Shown piece by piece: positions 19,366 through 50,833 of a DNA stretch of 64,000 nt. A program made the position numbers and the translations under genes. The DNA comes from an uncultured Bacteriovoracaceae bacterium (GTDB taxonomy: Bacteria > Bdellovibrionota > Bacteriovoracia > Bacteriovoracales > Bacteriovoracaceae), in assembly GCA_964012805.1 (NCBI GenBank), contig CAXGUD010000010.1, positions 48,793-112,792 of the forward strand, in the 5' to 3' direction. Positions within the stretch are counted from its first letter, which is position 1; each line of letters starts with the position of its first letter. Under the pieces are notes generated by a model that was given only the letters and a program-made list of their open reading frames with translations, did not search any database and had not been told where the DNA came from.

Positions 19366-20421
19366 CTAATTTTTGCAAAAATCAGTTTTAACTAATGTAT
19401 GAATATTATTTAGCTGAATAATACTACAGTCTTTGATGTTTAGATAAACATTAATTGTTTTACACTCTGTCTTTTTATTCTTATTTTTTTGCCATTTCTC
19501 ATTTGCTCGACACTTTAAATAGCTTTCTTTATCAACACAAGCCCAATGTTTCCCTTTACAATTGTAAACTAAACCTCTTCCCCTAAAAGAGTAATTAGGC
19601 GGCTCTGTATATGAGTCCTTTTTCTTTTTAATTTTTTTTATCAAAGATTCCTTTAAGATACTTGGTTTAGATACAACCATCGAAGCGGGGTTTCTTTCTT
19701 CTGGAACCACATTAGTTTTTTCCCTTTTATCTAAAGAAGTTATTTTTTCTTCTTCAATAATCTCTTGTTCTACTTTTTTTTGTTTTTTAATAATTGACTT
19801 CGGTTTTTCATTTGTCAAAAAGTCATCCCCTAAGCCAAAATCACTCCCATCTAATTCTGGACTATCCTCTTCTAAAAGGGCCATAGGGTCGTTTTTTTTA
19901 GATAAATCTTTTTTTGATTCGGGGCTCTTTACTTTTTTAACTATTGTCTTGGCTTTCCTTTTCTTCTTTTTCTTTACAAGTTTCTCACTTTTCTTAGTAA
20001 CGCCCTTTTTTTCCTTTTTTGAATCTTCTTCCCATGTTAGAAAAACATAAGCAATAACAACAAACGCAAATATTTGAATTATTTTTGATTTTTTATCTTT
20101 GGTTTTCTTTTCTTCTTCACTTAATTCATTTTTACTTTCGTCTTCATCTTCATATTCATCCTCTTCTTCATCCTCTTCCTCATCCTCATCCTCATCTTCA
20201 TCCTCGCCTTCATCCTCAACTTCATTTTCAACTTTTTTGTTATTTTTATTATTTTTTTTAGCTCTATCATCTAAATTTTCATTTTCCTCTTCTTCATATT
20301 CATCTTCTTCATATTCATCTTCTTCATATTCATCTTCTTCATATTGTTCATCATATTCCTCTTCGTCATATTCTGACTTTGAGAATTTATTCTTAATTTT
20401 TTTTATTAGAGAATCTATCAT
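19366..20421 (-). CDS. Hypothetical single-pass membrane protein with hyper-acidic N-terminus and Cys-containing C-terminal domain
   Basis: About 90-aa E/D/Y tract, TM segment IIQIFAFVVIAYVFLTW, Lys-rich linker, C-domain GLVYNCKGKHWACVD with 6 Cys. Confidence 0.75.
   Translation of the reverse strand: MIDSLIKKIKNKFSKSEYDEEEYDEQYEEDEYEEDEYEEDEYEEEENENLDDRAKKNNKNNKKVENEVEDEGEDEDEDEDEEEDEEEDEYEDEDESKNELSEEEKKTKDKKSKIIQIFAFVVIAYVFLTWEEDSKKEKKGVTKKSEKLVKKKKKRKAKTIVKKVKSPESKKDLSKKNDPMALLEEDSPELDGSDFGLGDDFLTNEKPKSIIKKQKKVEQEIIEEEKITSLDKREKTNVVPEERNPASMVVSKPSILKESLIKKIKKKKDSYTEPPNYSFRGRGLVYNCKGKHWACVDKESYLKCRANEKWQKNKNKKTECKTINVYLNIKDCSIIQLNNIHTLVKTDFCKN
20291..20345. repeat. Coding tandem repeat, 15-bp unit TCTTCATATTCATCT, about 3.7 copies (encodes EEDEY)
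   Basis: Perfect copies at 20291, 20306 and 20321, partial copy at 20336. Confidence 0.9.
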
Positions 20422-20461: not shown

Positions 20462-21640
20462 CTATAAATAGCGTTTCGGCATCTGTACGCTATATTTTAG
20501 TACTTTACTCTGAATATAGTTAAGTTTTTCTTTTAAGGAGTTTATATTTTTTGAGGCAATAAAAAATGATGGAAATAGGCTTTCTGGAGGCGAAACAGGG
20601 ATAATACCTTCTTTTATAGTCGAATTATAAATCATACTATTAATTAAATTTATTTTATCTTCAAAACTAGAAGTAGGTTTAATTTCTTTTTGAGAAAAGA
20701 AGTACCATCCACCTACCCCACCATCAGGCAAGAATTTTTTCATAGATCTAAGGAAGAGGCCCATAGTTTTTCTATAATTAACTTCAACTAATGGATAATA
20801 TTTAATTTTTCCTTGTTCCTCGAAAAAAAATGAATCGACCTGAATATATTCTCTCGCACCAAGACTAGAGTAGTACCTTGCTATTTTTTCGATATTTTCC
20901 TCTATCAAATTCATGCTCATAAAGTCATTATCTAATTTTTTTTCAAAATCTCTTTTGTTCTCAAAAATAAGGCCTCCCTTGAATGATCCTCTTTCATTTA
21001 TAAAGTTTTTTGTTATGGAGTAATTTAAAGGGGAGCTTAAATTAATAAGTATACCTATATCCATAATTCTTTTTAAATAAGGCTCTAAAACAATTGGGGA
21101 GTCTAATAGTATTTTTTCAAGATTATTGATTTTCTTAGCATTAAAAAATTCTTTACGGTTCAAACGTAAGACTCCATTACCTGCTGTTGAATAAGCTGCC
21201 CTTACGATCCATTCAGAGGTATCTTCAGAAGGATAAAAGTTTCTTAACTCATCTATATTTTCTATTAATAAAGTCTTCGGATGACACATTTTTTCTTCTA
21301 AGGCAAAAAGGGTCGAAGTTTTTTTTGAATTTAATAGTTTTTCAAGAGGTATATTTTTTAGCTTACCCCACCAATTTAATGAGCCAGAAGAAGCCTCTTT
21401 AGTCATTTTTGGTATAGTTAAACCAAGTTTTTTCAAATATTCTAAGTAATGTGGGCAATAGTATTTATTTGTTTTTAAACAAGACTCACTATTTTCTAAA
21501 AAGAAATATATATATTCGAGCTCTTGTCTAATCTTTTCAATTTTCTTCTTTAATTCATCATTTTTATCAAATAGGCCATATAACTCATATTCATAATCTA
21601 TATTAAAAATATTCGAATTCTTACGTTCTTCCATAATCAA
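20462..21640 (-). CDS. ATP-grasp-fold protein (DUF455-associated)
   Basis: WIVRAAYSTAGNG (Gly loop), IVLEPYL, IQVDSF, PLVEVNYRKTMG (ExN metal motif). Confidence 0.7.
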   Translation of the reverse strand: MIMEERKNSNIFNIDYEYELYGLFDKNDELKKKIEKIRQELEYIYFFLENSESCLKTNKYYCPHYLEYLKKLGLTIPKMTKEASSGSLNWWGKLKNIPLEKLLNSKKTSTLFALEEKMCHPKTLLIENIDELRNFYPSEDTSEWIVRAAYSTAGNGVLRLNRKEFFNAKKINNLEKILLDSPIVLEPYLKRIMDIGILINLSSPLNYSITKNFINERGSFKGGLIFENKRDFEKKLDNDFMSMNLIEENIEKIARYYSSLGAREYIQVDSFFFEEQGKIKYYPLVEVNYRKTMGLFLRSMKKFLPDGGVGGWYFFSQKEIKPTSSFEDKINLINSMIYNSTIKEGIIPVSPPESLFPSFFIASKNINSLKEKLNYIQSKVLKYSVQMPKRYL

Positions 21641-22476
21641 ATATGATCTTTATTCCAACTCTTTCTATTAGTAACTAAAAAATCACTCCTAAAATTTTTC
21701 AATCTTAAAATAAAGTCTTCATCAATACCAGCCTTTCTTCTAGCATCATCGTTAAAAATTATTCCTTTTGCTCTCGCTGGAGTTAGTCGATCTGGTAATA
21801 AAGAGTTATAATAATCCCACGTATCCTGGTCACCACTCCATCGTTTTAACCAACTATAACCCAAACCGACATGTTTTATTTCATCATTCAAAACAATTTC
21901 TAAAATTTTTGACGTTTTAGAATCACCATATTCCTCAAAAATATTTTTATAAAACAAAGCAAAATCAAGATTTGCTGACTCTATTGTCATAGACATGAAG
22001 GATAAAAACTGGGCCGGATCTTTCAAAACCTTCATTTGCCTCCAAAAAAAATCACTAAGGGGAAAATCACCAAATTCAACCCCAGAAAGCTCTTTCATTC
22101 GGTCTATATAAAGCTTTAGATGTTTCTGCTCATCTTTTAAGCTGGATAAAACTCCCTTTTTCAATTTCAGTGTATTATCATCATCAGGATAAATTAGAAT
22201 AAATGCAGCCATCATCTCAATTGCTAACAATTCATGATTTGCAAAAAAGTGCAAAGCCATAGACCTTTTTTCTGCTTCTATGAAAGAATTTATCTTTGGA
22301 AAGCGCATTTGCTTCGAAGAAAAGCTTATCCTTCCTGCCCTTCCAGGTTTAAGAGGGCAAGTGTATTCTTTTTTATTTTGACCTTCAAAAATATTTTCTA
22401 ACTTAGGAATTACAAGAAGTTTACTATTTAGACTTTCCCCTTCTAAAATTTCCCGAGCATAATCTTTTAAATTCAT
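21637..22476 (-). CDS. Ferritin-like di-iron protein, DUF455 family
   Basis: LHFFANHELLAIE, DEQKH, IESANLD, DEIKHVGLG..W; two ExxH motifs. Confidence 0.85.
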   Translation of the reverse strand: MNLKDYAREILEGESLNSKLLVIPKLENIFEGQNKKEYTCPLKPGRAGRISFSSKQMRFPKINSFIEAEKRSMALHFFANHELLAIEMMAAFILIYPDDDNTLKLKKGVLSSLKDEQKHLKLYIDRMKELSGVEFGDFPLSDFFWRQMKVLKDPAQFLSFMSMTIESANLDFALFYKNIFEEYGDSKTSKILEIVLNDEIKHVGLGYSWLKRWSGDQDTWDYYNSLLPDRLTPARAKGIIFNDDARRKAGIDEDFILRLKNFRSDFLVTNRKSWNKDHI

Positions 22477-25118
22477 CTCTTCTTTTTTCTTCTTTTAAAA
22501 TGAGGCTTCCTTTTTCCACTTTTCCTTGAAAAGCTGGTTTCTTTTTTATTTTCAGAGGAGCCTCGAAAGCTTCGACTACCTCTAGGACGAAAACGGACTC
22601 GATTTTTATAACATTCTTCACAAATGGCAAATTTTGTATCTTGCTCCAATTGTTTTCCACAACTTGAGCAAGCTGGAACAATCTTTTCAGACAATAAGCT
22701 GTTAAGTTTAAATATTGCAGCTCCCTTATTTTCTAATAAGAGGTATTCATCAAACTCAAAGTTTTTGTTATTAAAATGCCTTGCTAACCATTGAAATAAT
22801 TCAATACATTTTATAGAAGTTTCCAGGTAGTCTATATCATTAGACTTTTCATTAATCTCTTCAAAATAAATAGTTTCTGCTCTGGCGAACTTATTTACAA
22901 TCCATAAAAAGAACTGAACATGCTCCATTAAACCAAAGTTTACAGGAGCACAACTAAATCCAAATATTTCTGTATTAGTTAAAATTCCTAAATGATCAGC
23001 TTCCTCAACCATCTCTGATAATTCTATCATTTCTTTTAAGTCAACACAGTAAAAAGGTTTTTTAAAGACCATTGTGTTGAATAATCTTAAGAACTCCGAA
23101 AGCTTGAGGCTTGGCAGACCATGACTAGCGAGTGCATTATTCACTTGAGAAAAAATATCTAAATCAGGGCCGACCATACATTTATCTTTTTGACCCAATT
23201 TAGCCTCTAATGCCTCACTTATACTCTCTAGACCATTATCAACCCTTGAGAGGCAGTTCACATATCCTGTCGGATATCTATTAAACCTTCCCGCACGACC
23301 TGAAATCTGCTTAATCTCGCTTTTAGAAATAGGGAATTCTTTAGCGTTTATATACTTTGTTAAAGTAGAGAATACGATCCTTTTTATAGGGAGGTTCATG
23401 CCCATTGCGATAGCATCAGTACTTACAATGATATCTGTTTCTCCACTATCGAACTTCCTTGCTTGCTCTCTTCTAACCTCTGGACTTAGTCTTCCATAAA
23501 CAATAGAAACCTTAAAGCCACATTTTTCTAGCTCATACTTGTACTTCAAAGCATTTCTTCTAGAGAAAACAATGAGGGCATCGCCCTTTTCTAAATCACT
23601 TACCCGTATAGGCTTTCTCTGAGGCATAAGAGTCGTCATCCTCTCATAATTTCTGACCTCCAAGGTATCCCCACAAAGGTCAACAATCTTTTGGACAAGC
23701 TTTAAAGCTGATTTATCTCCACAAACATGGATTTCTTCTGAGTTTAAGTTAACAAGGGCCCTTGTCCAAGCCCAACCTCTTTGCGAATCAGAAATCATTT
23801 GAATTTCATCAACAACACAAGCATCAAAACTGCGACCAAATTGGGCCATTTCAATAGTAGAAGAAAAATGCGTTGAATCTTTTACATTAATTACCTCTTC
23901 CCCAGTTAATAAGGAAGTTGTAACATCTTTTCCGTTCATAGTGTCGTACAGCTCAGCTGCTAACAACCTAAGCGGTGCGAGGTAGCTACCTGTCGAAGCT
24001 TCGCAAAGGGATTCAACAGCATGGTATGTTTTGCCCGAATTAGTTGGTCCACCATGATAAATAACTTTTCTATTTAGCCTTCTAGCAGGTGAGTGAATCC
24101 AGAATTCTCCTAGATAATCTCTCAAAATATTTGCAGATATATCTTGTCTTTTTAAAATCAAAATAGACTTAACTAGTTTATTGAATTCTCTGCCTAAATA
24201 GCGTTCTCCACGCCATAAATTGCTCGAGACTTGTTTGAAGAATCTGTCATATTCCTCTTCCTCAATAAGATCGTATTTAATTTTTTTTTCTTCAAGTATA
24301 CTGTTAAAATATAGCTTAACCTGTTTGGAATAATCCAAAGCAATATCAGAAGGATAATTAAACTTTTCTTTTAGAATCGACTTAAGCTGATTTTCTAGCC
24401 TATTATAAGAGCTTCTTTTTAGTTTATTTCTAGTGACCTTCAATTTATTTTCTATTTCAATTTGAAGATCGCCAAAAAGCTCACTTACGACTGGTATTCC
24501 TCGAGTAAGATTTTCTTCTATTTTTTTATAACTTTTTTCAATTTGAATAATTGATTCATCAAAAGCATAGTCCCTCATTTTTGACCTAAAGGAACCTTTA
24601 CAAGCTGGACAGGAACAAGGTAGTTCTTGCTCTTTCATTTCAAACTCAAAATCTTCACTAATTTTTTTTTGAGTTATTTGATGATCCCTGGCTTTCTTTT
24701 TCATCCAATCGGAAAAATATTCAAATCCGCTCTCTAGATTTTGTTGATCATTATCTGCTGGTTCACCTAAGTAAAGCTTTTCCTTTTCTGGAAAAAGAAA
24801 GCTTTCAATAAAGCAAACATCTAAAATATAATCCTTTTCAGTAAATTTTTGAAATGAACAAAATTCTTTTTCAAAGAAGTAAAGAAGTGAAGGATTATCT
24901 TCAAAGAATTTATGAAGCTGAAGCTGGAGTTTTTGAAGCCAGGATAAAATTAGGTCAGCAACCTCAACGGGTCTAATTTCTTCGGAGTTCTCTAAATTAT
25001 ATTTTTTCTTATAGGCCTCTCTCTCTTCAGAAAGAAACCTCTTTAATGTTTCAAAGTCAGGTAGTTCTATATCATTTGGTTTAGAAGTCATAAAAATCTT
25101 GTGTAGTTTGTTTGGCAA
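22473..25118 (-). CDS. SUV3-like SF2 RNA/DNA helicase
   Basis: GPTNSGKT, YLAPLRLLA, VVDEIQM, RGWAWTRAL, YGRLSPEVR, TDAIAMGMNL, KQISGRAGR, the diagnostic Suv3 motifs. Confidence 0.92.
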   Translation of the reverse strand: MPNKLHKIFMTSKPNDIELPDFETLKRFLSEEREAYKKKYNLENSEEIRPVEVADLILSWLQKLQLQLHKFFEDNPSLLYFFEKEFCSFQKFTEKDYILDVCFIESFLFPEKEKLYLGEPADNDQQNLESGFEYFSDWMKKKARDHQITQKKISEDFEFEMKEQELPCSCPACKGSFRSKMRDYAFDESIIQIEKSYKKIEENLTRGIPVVSELFGDLQIEIENKLKVTRNKLKRSSYNRLENQLKSILKEKFNYPSDIALDYSKQVKLYFNSILEEKKIKYDLIEEEEYDRFFKQVSSNLWRGERYLGREFNKLVKSILILKRQDISANILRDYLGEFWIHSPARRLNRKVIYHGGPTNSGKTYHAVESLCEASTGSYLAPLRLLAAELYDTMNGKDVTTSLLTGEEVINVKDSTHFSSTIEMAQFGRSFDACVVDEIQMISDSQRGWAWTRALVNLNSEEIHVCGDKSALKLVQKIVDLCGDTLEVRNYERMTTLMPQRKPIRVSDLEKGDALIVFSRRNALKYKYELEKCGFKVSIVYGRLSPEVRREQARKFDSGETDIIVSTDAIAMGMNLPIKRIVFSTLTKYINAKEFPISKSEIKQISGRAGRFNRYPTGYVNCLSRVDNGLESISEALEAKLGQKDKCMVGPDLDIFSQVNNALASHGLPSLKLSEFLRLFNTMVFKKPFYCVDLKEMIELSEMVEEADHLGILTNTEIFGFSCAPVNFGLMEHVQFFLWIVNKFARAETIYFEEINEKSNDIDYLETSIKCIELFQWLARHFNNKNFEFDEYLLLENKGAAIFKLNSLLSEKIVPACSSCGKQLEQDTKFAICEECYKNRVRFRPRGSRSFRGSSENKKETSFSRKSGKRKPHFKRRKKKR

Positions 25119-25183: not shown

Positions 25184-26431
25184 TTATTTTGCCATTTCTA
25201 TTAAATACGACAATCCCAACTTTGCAAAATGAGAAGCATGACTGGCGCTATTTCTTGAAACAGATATTGTGTCGTTTGCCGTATGAATTTTTTTATTCAT
25301 ATCGTTTTTCCTTGCCTCAAAAGGTATTGAAGCTGGAAAACCCTGAGCTGTCCATGATGCATGATCAGAACAAGCATATCCACAACTATCATACCCCCAA
25401 GAAACCTTAACATATTCATCAATTAAGTTTCCTATAAAGCGATTTTGATCAGCGTTCGTGAAATCATCCATCATAACAATATCTAAATCCGATCCTTTAA
25501 AATTTGTCATATCAAGCTGCATGACTCCAACAACATTTTGGTTAGTTTCCTTCATTTTATTAGCAATATCCTTAGAACCCAAAAGTCCTACTTCCTCAGC
25601 AGCATAGGCCATGAACTTAATAGTTCTTTTTGGTCTATAACTGCCTTCCACTAAAAGTCTAAGGATTTCAGTGATAGTACCCATTCCGGAAGCATTATCA
25701 TCGGCTCCTGGGGCCCTAGCTCGAATTCTTCCCCACCAACCAGCTATACTATCAGCATGCCCTCCAATAACAACAATTTCTTGAGGTTTTTCTGTTCCTT
25801 CAATTGTTAGAATAATAGAGGGCTGCTTCCAAGAGTGATTAAAAAACTCTACCTTTATATCTGATCTTCCTTGAGTAATTTCTTGCCACTTTCCTTTTAA
25901 CCACTCCTGAGATTGGTAACCCGTTTCACTCTGATAATATCGGTTGTGAAATGTTGTCAATTTTTCAATAACTTCTAAAATCTTTTTTTCATTAACGAGC
26001 TCAAGCAAGGGTCTAATTCTTTCTTGCTGATTTATTTCAAAATTTTCGAAATTACCCTTCTCAATTAAGGAGTATTCTTCACCTTTATTTAAGAAGTCCT
26101 TTCCCTCACTATAATTTTCATGTAAAAAATAGCCACCACAACGATTAAAGTTTCTATGCATTATAGATGATAGAGAGGACAGAACACTTTCATCAACCTT
26201 AAGTAGACTAACACCATCTCGTGATTCTATCTCTTCTATTCCATCTCCTATACTTTTTTGGGAAAGGTCTAAAGAATTCTCATCTATAGTAATCCACTTA
26301 TAATTTGGCTTTGAAGCCTCTGAATTCGTTGAGCCAATGACAAAGGATATAAAAAAACTTAAAAGTACAATACAGCCCATAAAAATATTTGAGTTTCTAC
26401 GGATGTTCTTTTTTCTTTTTTTAATAGTCAT
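25184..26431 (-). CDS. Secreted M28-family leucyl aminopeptidase (Vibrio/Aeromonas type)
   Basis: RCGGY propeptide, GGHADS, APGADDNASG, AAEEVGL, QLDMT, CGYACSDHASW, IHT. Confidence 0.92.
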   Translation of the reverse strand: MTIKKRKKNIRRNSNIFMGCIVLLSFFISFVIGSTNSEASKPNYKWITIDENSLDLSQKSIGDGIEEIESRDGVSLLKVDESVLSSLSSIMHRNFNRCGGYFLHENYSEGKDFLNKGEEYSLIEKGNFENFEINQQERIRPLLELVNEKKILEVIEKLTTFHNRYYQSETGYQSQEWLKGKWQEITQGRSDIKVEFFNHSWKQPSIILTIEGTEKPQEIVVIGGHADSIAGWWGRIRARAPGADDNASGMGTITEILRLLVEGSYRPKRTIKFMAYAAEEVGLLGSKDIANKMKETNQNVVGVMQLDMTNFKGSDLDIVMMDDFTNADQNRFIGNLIDEYVKVSWGYDSCGYACSDHASWTAQGFPASIPFEARKNDMNKKIHTANDTISVSRNSASHASHFAKLGLSYLIEMAK

Positions 26432-48610: not shown

Positions 48611-50833
48611 ATGACTGATTGGTTAGAAGATGCAAATAGTTCTAAAGACTATCAATCTGAAATCCTTTCATTTTCAACTTATTTTGAAAAATTCCAAAAT
48701 AATCCAGAGAAGGAACTTCGATCTTCGTGTAAGTACCTTTTAGATATGATCAATTACTTTGGAAAAGATGATAATGATCTTTATAATCTATTTACTCTAC
48801 AGCAACCAGACTCTCCTGCGGTCTTCGGTCAGCAGATACCTGAAAAATCAATTATTGAAAATCTTATAAATTTTCTCGAAGAAGGTATCAACAATAAATT
48901 TATCCTTCTTGTAGGTCCAAATGGTTCATCCAAATCAAGTATTGTAAAAAAAATAATGAAGGGTGCTGAAATTTACTCTGAATCGGAGCCTGGATCTCTC
49001 TATTCATTTAGCTGGATTTTTCCAATCGAAAATTATGTAAAAGGCTCTTTAGGTTTAGCAAATTATGTTCCTCAAGATAACCTTACTACATTTGCTCACT
49101 TAGATGATAAAGATATCTCTGCCATTATTGGTTCAGAATTGAAAGATCACCCAATTTTACTTATACCAAAAATAAGTAGACAAAAAATTATAAACGAAGT
49201 TCTCTCAAATAATCCTCAAGTACTAAAATACGTTCAAAAATCTTATCTTTATAGAGGAGACCTCTCTAAAAAAAATAAAATGATTTATGACGCCCTACTG
49301 AAAAACTTTAAAGGAAATCATCAAGAAGTTCTTAAATATATAAGAGTGGAAAGAATTAAAATTAGCAAAAGATACTCGACTAGCGCTGTTACGATAGAGC
49401 CCCAGATTCATCTAGATGCAAGAATGCAACAAATAAGTATGGACAAAAGGCTCGCCAGCTTACCTCCAAGCCTTCAATGTCTTAATTTATTCTCCCTTCA
49501 AGGAGAAATTGTCATGGCCAATAGAGGAATCCTTGAATATTCAGACTTACTAAAAAGACCTCTAGATACTTACAAATATCTTCTCATGACTATGGAAACT
49601 GGAACTATAAATATTCAAGGGATTCTGACTGAATTAGATACCTTCTTTATCGGAACCTCAAATGAGATTCACTTAGCAGCTTTCAAACAGCATCCTGATT
49701 TTAACTCATTTAAAGGACGATTTAATTTTATTAAAGTTCCATACCTTCTTAATCATTTGGAAGAAGAGAAAATTTACAAAGAACAGGTTGAAGGTTTAAA
49801 GGACAAATCTGTTTTCGAACCCCACTCCCTTGAAACCCTTTGTTTATTTTCAACTATGAGCAGACTAAGAGTATGCCAAAGCAAAAACTATTCTAACAAG
49901 AAACTTTCAAATATCGTCACTGGTTTTAACCCTTTAGAAAAATGTCTTCTGCTTAGTAAAAATATACTTCCTGAGAAACTAGATATAGAGTCTAAACAGA
50001 TTCTTCGACATAGCATTGATGAGGTGAGAAACGAGTTTAAAACAGAAAATCTATATGAAGGAAAATTTGGGCTTTCGCCAAGAGATTTAAAAAATATTCT
50101 TTACCAACTATCTTCTACTTACAAAAGAGTCACCTTCATAGAAATAATAGACTTCTTAGGTAAACTGATCCTTCAAAAAAATGATTACGATTTTCTCAAT
50201 ATGACTCCTCAAGGTGATTTCCATAATCCAGTCAGGTTTATTTCATTACTAAAAAACCATAACCTTAACATTTTTGATTTTGAATTAAGGGAAAGCCTAG
50301 GACTAGTTGATAACCGCTCTTACGAAGATTATATAAAAAAATACATTGAAAATATTAATGCCTTTATCAAAGGAGAAAAATTAAAAAATAAAATCACAGG
50401 AAAATTCGAAGAATGCGATGTTTACTTTATAAAAGAGTTTGAAAGCAGTATTACGCTAGAAGAGGAGGCTGAAAAATTTAGGGCCCACCTAATTTCAAAA
50501 TTAGGTGCTTTTGCATTAGACAATCCGAAAAAAGAAATAAAATACTCAGAAGTATTTCCTAACCTCATTCAAAAACTTCAAGAGTCTTTTAGAAAAGAGC
50601 AAAAAAATCTCATTCAAGATATTTCAAAAAACTTAGTCTTTTACGAAGCTCAAATAGACGCGGCGCAAGACAGTCATACAGAAAAGAAACGTCCCTCTAA
50701 AAATGGGCAAAACCTCTCTCAAAAAGAGATTTCTCAAATTACTGCAATTATTAGCAACCTGCAAAAAAAGTTTCAATATACCCGAGAAGGCGCTATCTCA
50801 ATTTTAAAGTATGTGATAAAGGAACGTTACTAG
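48611..50833 (+). CDS. prkA: PrkA/YeaG-family AAA+ serine protein kinase
   Basis: LLVGPNGSSKSS, DHPILLIP, GEIVMANRGILEYSDLLKRP, IGTSNE, VPYLL, GLSPR. Confidence 0.85.
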   Translation: MTDWLEDANSSKDYQSEILSFSTYFEKFQNNPEKELRSSCKYLLDMINYFGKDDNDLYNLFTLQQPDSPAVFGQQIPEKSIIENLINFLEEGINNKFILLVGPNGSSKSSIVKKIMKGAEIYSESEPGSLYSFSWIFPIENYVKGSLGLANYVPQDNLTTFAHLDDKDISAIIGSELKDHPILLIPKISRQKIINEVLSNNPQVLKYVQKSYLYRGDLSKKNKMIYDALLKNFKGNHQEVLKYIRVERIKISKRYSTSAVTIEPQIHLDARMQQISMDKRLASLPPSLQCLNLFSLQGEIVMANRGILEYSDLLKRPLDTYKYLLMTMETGTINIQGILTELDTFFIGTSNEIHLAAFKQHPDFNSFKGRFNFIKVPYLLNHLEEEKIYKEQVEGLKDKSVFEPHSLETLCLFSTMSRLRVCQSKNYSNKKLSNIVTGFNPLEKCLLLSKNILPEKLDIESKQILRHSIDEVRNEFKTENLYEGKFGLSPRDLKNILYQLSSTYKRVTFIEIIDFLGKLILQKNDYDFLNMTPQGDFHNPVRFISLLKNHNLNIFDFELRESLGLVDNRSYEDYIKKYIENINAFIKGEKLKNKITGKFEECDVYFIKEFESSITLEEEAEKFRAHLISKLGAFALDNPKKEIKYSEVFPNLIQKLQESFRKEQKNLIQDISKNLVFYEAQIDAAQDSHTEKKRPSKNGQNLSQKEISQITAIISNLQKKFQYTREGAISILKYVIKERY

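Follow-up and report, generated by a model that had tools for sequence, protein, structure and literature searches.

The question raised by the 64,000-nucleotide stretch of DNA analysed here (the window; positions 48,793 to 112,792 of contig CAXGUD010000010.1, assembly GCA_964012805.1, from an uncultured Bacteriovoracaceae bacterium) is what three closely packed minus-strand genes at 20462..25118 do together, and which of them belong to a single functional unit. In order of reading, they encode a SUV3-family superfamily 2 (SF2) helicase (22473..25118; 881 amino acids (aa); PF22527 DEXQc_Suv3 E = 7e-60, Helicase_C E = 6e-15), a DUF455 ferritin-like four-helix-bundle protein (21637..22476; 279 aa; PF04305 E = 9e-45, 153.6 bits against a cut-off of 34.3), and an ATP-grasp amide ligase of the PGM1/BesA/LdmS type (20462..21640; 392 aa), the last recognised from its predicted fold and a weak GSH-S_ATP match (E = 8e-4). 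An earlier note on this DNA, made from the sequence alone, had read the trio as an oxidase and a ligase coupled to an RNA helicase. Comparative data upheld the pair and removed SUV3 as a required component: the DUF455 and ATP-grasp proteins are the halves of an enzyme that is fused in other lineages, and the functional unit is this enzyme pair.

Throughout, G, L and P numbers denote genomes, fetched loci and proteins, respectively, f1 denotes the Bacteriovoracaceae and other f-numbers denote other families. The SUV3 and DUF455 reading frames overlap by four nucleotides (ATGA, 22473-22476) as previously described, while the second overlap of the proposed chain (TTGA between the DUF455 and ligase frames, 21637-21640) is conditional on the use of TTG as the ligase start. 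Because the 74% identical homolog P0004 begins at an in-frame ATG two codons further on (21634; query residues 3-392 aligned with 1-390), that ATG is probably the real start, which would give a 390-aa ligase and a 2-nt gap to the DUF455 gene. With either start the coupling of the DUF455 and ligase genes is tight, and all three genes are probably co-transcribed. Comparison of four RNA runs with the stretch gave only short low-complexity matches, and a promoter and terminator scan returned 32 and 7 sites, respectively, as against 39.2 and 5.7 in shuffles.

The evidence for a single unit came from a search of 301 genomes, among them 67 related Bacteriovoracaceae genomes besides that of the window, with pair counts tallied by hand. 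Both DUF455 and the ligase were present in 58 of the 67 family genomes and neither in the other nine, which are 95-99% complete; in the 58, the ligase was detected by a single sequence (55 genomes), by profile (G113 and G182) or in its locus (G225). Eight SUV3 loci fetched from pair-less genomes had kept SUV3 and some flanking genes, both enzymes being gone. Outside the Bacteriovoracaceae the two domains formed one protein of 600-900 aa, as seen in 20 loci fetched from Bdellovibrionota outside this family and, when counted by order, in 30/116 (some cut by contig ends), 8/38 and 11/81 genomes, a set that overlaps with the 20 loci. A metagenome search with the fusion profile as query extended the same pattern, in that both domains lay in one open reading frame (ORF) in 70 of the best 80 of 490 loci, nine others being cut by contig ends and one frameshifted; the source names on fusion matches included Verrucomicrobiota, SAR324, Pigmentibacter and Gemmatimonadota. 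The window DUF455 protein corresponds to the N-terminal domain of the fused enzyme and the ligase to the C-terminal domain, the latter aligning over its whole length with the fusion C-halves (hhalign: 99.9%, E = 7.5e-34, 354 columns). Conservation of the DUF455/ATP-grasp pairing, on which the earlier note had staked its idea, was thereby borne out by joint presence, joint absence and fusion elsewhere.

A quick, midpoint-rooted tree of 161 DUF455 domains, from which half of the f1 rows and the duplicate loci were omitted, placed all ligase-linked DUF455s in a single clade on a long branch (SH-aLRT 100). Since the split forms nest among the fusions, the tree fits fission of a fused enzyme in the Bacteriovoracaceae ancestor. 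The stand-alone DUF455s of families f9 and f13 formed a separate clade, with ligase matches in 0/35 and 0/18, respectively. In most fetched loci these stand-alone genes and their relatives (L060-L075, L177, L229) lay between yebC and a gene for an RsuA/RluB-type pseudouridine synthase, a separate hint that DUF455 keeps company with translation genes. No fusion relative was found among the viral contigs searched, and plasmids gave seven distant DUF455 records, two annotated regions of which list no ATP-grasp gene. Prediction of a DUF455 and ligase complex with Fe and ATP scored 0.00, gave no verdict and was not used as evidence.

The distribution of SUV3 was quite different. The protein has a helicase core (~343-613) preceded by a 340-aa N-terminal extension with CxCxxC, and a C-terminus with a CxxC...CxxC motif and an Arg/Lys-rich tail. 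Its gene is single-copy and occurs in 67/67 family genomes, but was found in just three of 233 genomes from elsewhere in the phylum. Adjacency to the pair extends well beyond the window genome, SUV3 and DUF455 being located on the same contig and strand in all 58 family genomes that have both: in 52 the spacing leaves no room for another gene, and in six a gene is inserted, on the opposite strand in the examined cases. The insert recorded in L036, L037, L039, L172, L173 and L175 is a 500-aa opposite-strand gene with no Pfam match. Such constant gene order, together with the short gaps or overlaps at both junctions and a second SUV3 adjacency in G272, speaks for a dedicated SUV3/DUF455/ATP-grasp machine that repairs or modifies RNA unwound by SUV3. 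We nevertheless regard a three-part machine as highly improbable: SUV3 persists in the nine family genomes that lack the pair, only G272 among the fusion-bearing genomes of the 301 searched has a SUV3 match at E ≤ 1e-30, the inserted gene separates the two in 6/58, and synteny in the family extends to flanking genes as well. Because SUV3 persists without the pair, and fusion-bearing genomes other than G272 are without SUV3, it is not an obligatory part of the enzyme; it is a core gene of the family, and the pair took up its place behind it in the ancestor of the Bacteriovoracaceae.

As for the enzyme itself, the AlphaFold2 model of the DUF455 protein (pLDDT 94) is a ferritin-like bundle, in which both of the ExxH sites noted earlier are intact (DEQKH, residues 115-119; DEIKH, residues 198-202). 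The predicted di-iron ligand set, assigned from motif conservation, comprises two histidines and four carboxylates (E82, E116, H119, E166, E199 and H202; 21871..22233, minus strand), and all six residues were invariant in 36/36 ligase-linked split-form homologs and 17/17 stand-alone homologs. The protein thus combines a four-helix bundle with the E...ExxH...E...ExxH arrangement of ferritin-like di-iron carboxylate enzymes, and the domain would be expected to bind iron and perform O2 chemistry. Ligase-linked DUF455s follow the pattern HFFANHE...EQxH...ExANLDF...ExxH and are marked as a subfamily by N80-H81, residue 81 being His in 36/36 ligase-linked rows versus Ile in 17/17 stand-alone rows. 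MiaE, a di-iron enzyme cited in the earlier note, gave a profile match to DUF455 of E = 1.5 only and no MiaE family match, and was absent both from the Foldseek matches listed and from the 50 VIA rows shown for the model.

Structural comparison of the DUF455 model admitted two interpretations. Foldseek placed aldehyde-deformylating oxygenase first, albeit weakly (E = 0.013), and VIA aligned the same oxygenase over 186 residues (Z 14.0, root-mean-square deviation 3.4), while the top VIA rows, tied with the oxygenase, were DPS-like and mini-bacterioferritin structures (Z 14.5 and 14.4) spanning 137-146 residues. These top rows suit an alternative in which DUF455 is an iron, oxygen or peroxide sensor, or a ferroxidase, that gates the ligase, and the ligase product is a metabolite with a role in redox balance or stress, for instance a thiol dipeptide. 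GshB, glutathione S-transferase (GST), OsmC, the VIT1 iron transporter and the SOUL haem protein among the neighbours of the pair, a DtxR-type regulator gene 3.6 kb upstream in the window, and a sister ligase that works with a carbamoyltransferase in place of DUF455 (L017, L018 and P0121) point in the same direction. A gating role is unlikely all the same, given that the oxygenase aligns with a larger part of the model and ranks first in Foldseek, that N80-H81, invariant, subfamily-specific and adjacent to ligand E82, suits a substrate pocket, and that the carbamoyltransferase swap is also in keeping with a tailoring enzyme plus ligase.

The ligase was modelled with AlphaFold2 at pLDDT 96 as a three-domain ATP-grasp fold, in agreement with the earlier assignment. 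Foldseek returned at least 500 matches to this model at E ≤ 0.001, and all among the matches listed were ATP-grasp proteins. The best were 8YND (E = 8e-15), a Streptomyces ATP-grasp peptide ligase, 3WVR (3e-11), LdmS (7R8Q; 5e-11) and BesA (8YI6; 5e-11); we take PDB entries 3WVQ and 3WVR to be PGM1. Structures of the PGM1/BesA/LdmS type held ranks 1-16, ahead of PurK, PurD and biotin carboxylase, and LdmS and 8YND were also matched weakly in a profile search. PreAtp-grasp (PF18604) gave no match to the ligase at E 0.1, and of the named Atlas clusters the nearest have LdmS_N or PreAtp-grasp. The ATP-grasp residue set is conserved, namely two basic ATP-binding residues, a Gly loop, a hinge Glu, and Asp plus ExN metal ligands, roles that follow from general knowledge of ATP-grasp enzymes. 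The predicted ATP/Mg and carboxylate-binding residues (20771..21325, minus strand) are K106, R147, the Gly loop at 151-156, E186, D269, E286, N288 and R290. Over 136 aligned rows D269 and R290 were invariant, with K106 in 133, G154 in 133, E286 in 131 and N288 in 134, and position 147, Arg in the window protein, was Lys in 102/136; the hallmarks reported in the earlier note are therefore present and conserved. By analogy with PGM1, BesA and LdmS, the enzyme would catalyse ATP-dependent carboxylate-amine ligation with acyl-phosphate chemistry.

Relatives of the ligase were also encountered in other company. For one paralog the partner, either coupled or fused, is a CmcH/NodU-type carbamoyltransferase and DUF455 is absent (L017/L252:6759-9541, L018/L253:6631-9278, P0121); in one locus a glycosyltransferase lies beside it. 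More distant ligases, one of which has a PreAtp-grasp match, share operons with a pyridoxal phosphate-dependent decarboxylase (L250:1914-5563, L251:4859-7317), and the L250 operon also holds a ketosynthase III; both represent small candidate biosynthetic clusters. P0150 is an eukaryotic-looking 519-aa ligase homolog with Asn-rich low-complexity inserts.

Because the characterised structural neighbours of the ligase all join amino acids or peptides, a substrate of that type is the reading we prefer, and we put at about even the chance that the pair is an oxidase plus amide ligase acting on an amino acid or peptide. An amino acid, free or conjugated, would be oxidised at the di-iron/O2 site of the DUF455 domain. 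The ligase would use ATP to activate a carboxylate as an acyl-phosphate and would then form an amide with either an amino acid or the N-terminus of a peptide, presumably yielding a small amino-acid or peptide product; SUV3, the upstream and probably co-transcribed core gene, would stand outside the enzyme. Consistent with such a substrate is the recurrence, in an uncontrolled tally, of peptidase and glutathione genes close to the pair: M14 with a 4-bp overlap (L042), M24 (L094, L147), M17 (L117), M28 and M3 (Bacteriovoracaceae, L043, L045), GshB in 5/5 f32 loci, and GST (L210, L211). The DUF455 and ligase proteins are moreover near neutral across homologs (median isoelectric point 6.1-6.8), unlike a typical RNA-binding surface. 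Three observations weigh on the other side, these being the VIA tie with DPS-like and mini-bacterioferritin structures, the presence of RNA-type helicases of three families as conserved neighbours in four lineages at a frequency above chance, and the lack of a conserved transporter, precursor peptide, redox partner or additional tailoring gene alongside the pair, which would be unusual for a natural-product cluster. The neighbours of the pair vary between lineages, and no multi-gene cluster with further enzymes is conserved.

The helicases in question lend themselves to an alternative in which the same oxidase-ligase chemistry would act on the translation apparatus, the acceptor of the oxidised amino-acid amide being a nucleoside in tRNA or rRNA, or else a protein associated with the ribosome. 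This would have brought the pair repeatedly into the vicinity of genes for RNA helicases and RNA modification, and SUV3 would be just one such helicase neighbour among several that can replace one another. The SUV3 that lies divergently 562 nt from the fusion in G272 is a different one, 33% identical to that of the window. The same divergent position is occupied in f14 by a Ski2-like DUF3516 helicase, 64-231 nt from the fusion in L043, L045 and L212; helicases of this type were also found at a greater distance in L217 (1.6 kb) and L053 (4.5 kb) and, 238 nt from the fusion, in the metagenome locus L108. In 13 of the best 80 of the 490 metagenome loci, a DEAD-box helicase was located upstream or downstream of the fusion, within a block that also holds an EttA/Uup-like ABC-F protein and RF3 and, in two loci, a DUF3516 helicase as well; all 13 fall within one 43-row clade and count as one event. 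Overlapping the stop of this DEAD-box gene is a conserved gene of 115-150 aa (L082:5622-6014 and 8 homologs) that matches no family or structure; it appeared L7Ae-like by eye, was unconfirmed by any tool, and was left out of the count of RNA genes.

The window genome has six strong matches of these helicase types in 4.47 Mb, and the Poisson expectation was calculated for 6-10 genes of this kind in 40-100 independent contexts. Besides the discovery case, three adjacencies were seen versus 0.1-0.9 expected (P 0.0002-0.06), so that the association exceeds a single accident. The best NCBIfam matches of the DUF3516 helicase are Hel308-type DNA helicases, so that it need not be specific for RNA, and without it two events are left (P 0.005-0.23).

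Evidence from the wider neighbourhood as to the target was mixed. An RluA-family pseudouridine synthase gene was present within ~2 kb in 5/5 f32 loci, near MetRS/SpoU/TrmO genes, and again in L052; YebC (f15), ArfB, TrpRS, TyrRS and SUI1 were further neighbours, and a gene with an MnmC-type methyltransferase domain overlapped by 4 bp. Contexts with such neighbours were counted by hand, and the controls were 3/50 RNA/translation genes in the window and 16/145 for distal genes in the loci themselves, or 9/136 after one repeated block was collapsed (7/152 distal ORFs having been left out as already annotated or shadow frames). In Bdellovibrionota an immediate RNA/translation neighbour occurred in 7/20 contexts versus 12-13% expected (P 0.006-0.01), but P was 0.10 with the raw distal control; metagenome contexts (~4/45) were at background, and the pooled enrichment of 11/65 contexts was not significant (P 0.13-0.82). 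Neither protein has an RNA-binding domain or basic character, and we know of no ATP-grasp enzyme acting on RNA. On balance, a translation target is a possibility that we entertain tentatively, and we are rather doubtful of its more specific form, a new RNA- or ribosome-modifying system working beside each lineage's own helicase (SUV3, DUF3516 Ski2-like or DEAD-box). Since three helicase families recur beside the enzyme, a translation target is directly testable. A separate candidate role, as a substitute for the EpmA-like EF-P ligase, was rejected: an epmA-like gene (E = 1e-81 or better; two above cut-off) was found in 5/5 genomes, three with and two without the pair.

Two further genes flank the trio on the minus strand. 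That for an M28 aminopeptidase (LapA-like; 25184..26431; PF04389 E = 6e-36) is co-directional and lies 65 nt upstream of SUV3, a position that it also occupies in 6/9 loci from L031 to L039, two of the remaining loci ending too early. That for an acidic low-complexity membrane protein (19366..20421; no Pfam or NCBIfam match) lies 40 nt downstream of the ligase; the protein has long Glu/Asp runs and a Cys-rich C-terminus conserved in relatives. The latter gene is kept where the pair is lost, in relatives mostly has a further gene between it and the pair, and is convergent with an HD-GYP-type gene across the whole family.

A conserved, predicted two-domain oxidase-ligase, split in the Bacteriovoracaceae, is thus real and apparently unstudied. 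A literature search, beyond the reach of which lay most subscription papers, found no description of the DUF455/ATP-grasp pair, PF04305 or DUF3516, and for DUF455 a fold assignment is noted in PMC4520260. DUF455 is widespread with no assigned reaction found, and the tie of one subfamily to a peptide-type ligase limits the reactions worth assaying; the naturally split form offers two small, separately testable proteins. If the amino-acid reading is true, new conjugate chemistry would exist in predatory bacteria and Verrucomicrobiota; if the translation reading is true, the new chemistry would be that of an ATP-grasp enzyme with RNA or the ribosome as its target.

Among known systems, SUV3/SUPV3L1 of the mitochondrial degradosome has the DEXQc_Suv3 domain in common with the window SUV3 (above cut-off); the latter, a bacterial protein, carries an extended N-terminus and a basic tail with a Cys motif, and has no nuclease partner in the locus. 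PGM1-type peptide ligases (3WVQ/3WVR; 8YND/8YNQ), BesA (8YI6) and LdmS (7R8P/7R8Q) have a common ATP-grasp fold with a pre-ATP-grasp-type N-domain. The window ligase aligned with 8YND, 3WVR and 8YI6 at TM-scores of 0.63-0.69, at 9-14% identity to PGM1, BesA and LdmS and without a PreAtp-grasp Pfam match; unlike them, it is fused or coupled to a ferritin-like domain and belongs to no biosynthetic cluster. The Bes pathway pairs BesC with BesA, and HmrA is a peptidase. According to PMC9486568, LdmS makes an Asp-Met dipeptide and is encoded in an operon with hmrA. PMC13185094 describes at least 25 gene clusters in which pairs of a di-iron oxidase and an ATP-grasp enzyme assemble small peptides, and also the mangotoxin system MboA/MboC/MboD, which likewise pairs a di-iron enzyme with an amide ligase on amino acids. 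The Bes and Mbo oxidases are haem-oxygenase-like and encoded in multi-gene clusters, whereas the window DUF455 is ferritin-like with two ExxH motifs, and its unit consists of two domains, usually fused, without a transporter or other tailoring genes. Aldehyde-deformylating oxygenase and MiaE share with the window DUF455 the four-helix bundle and the two-His/four-carboxylate motif, but the window protein differs from both in belonging to a distinct DUF455 subfamily that is tied to the ligase.

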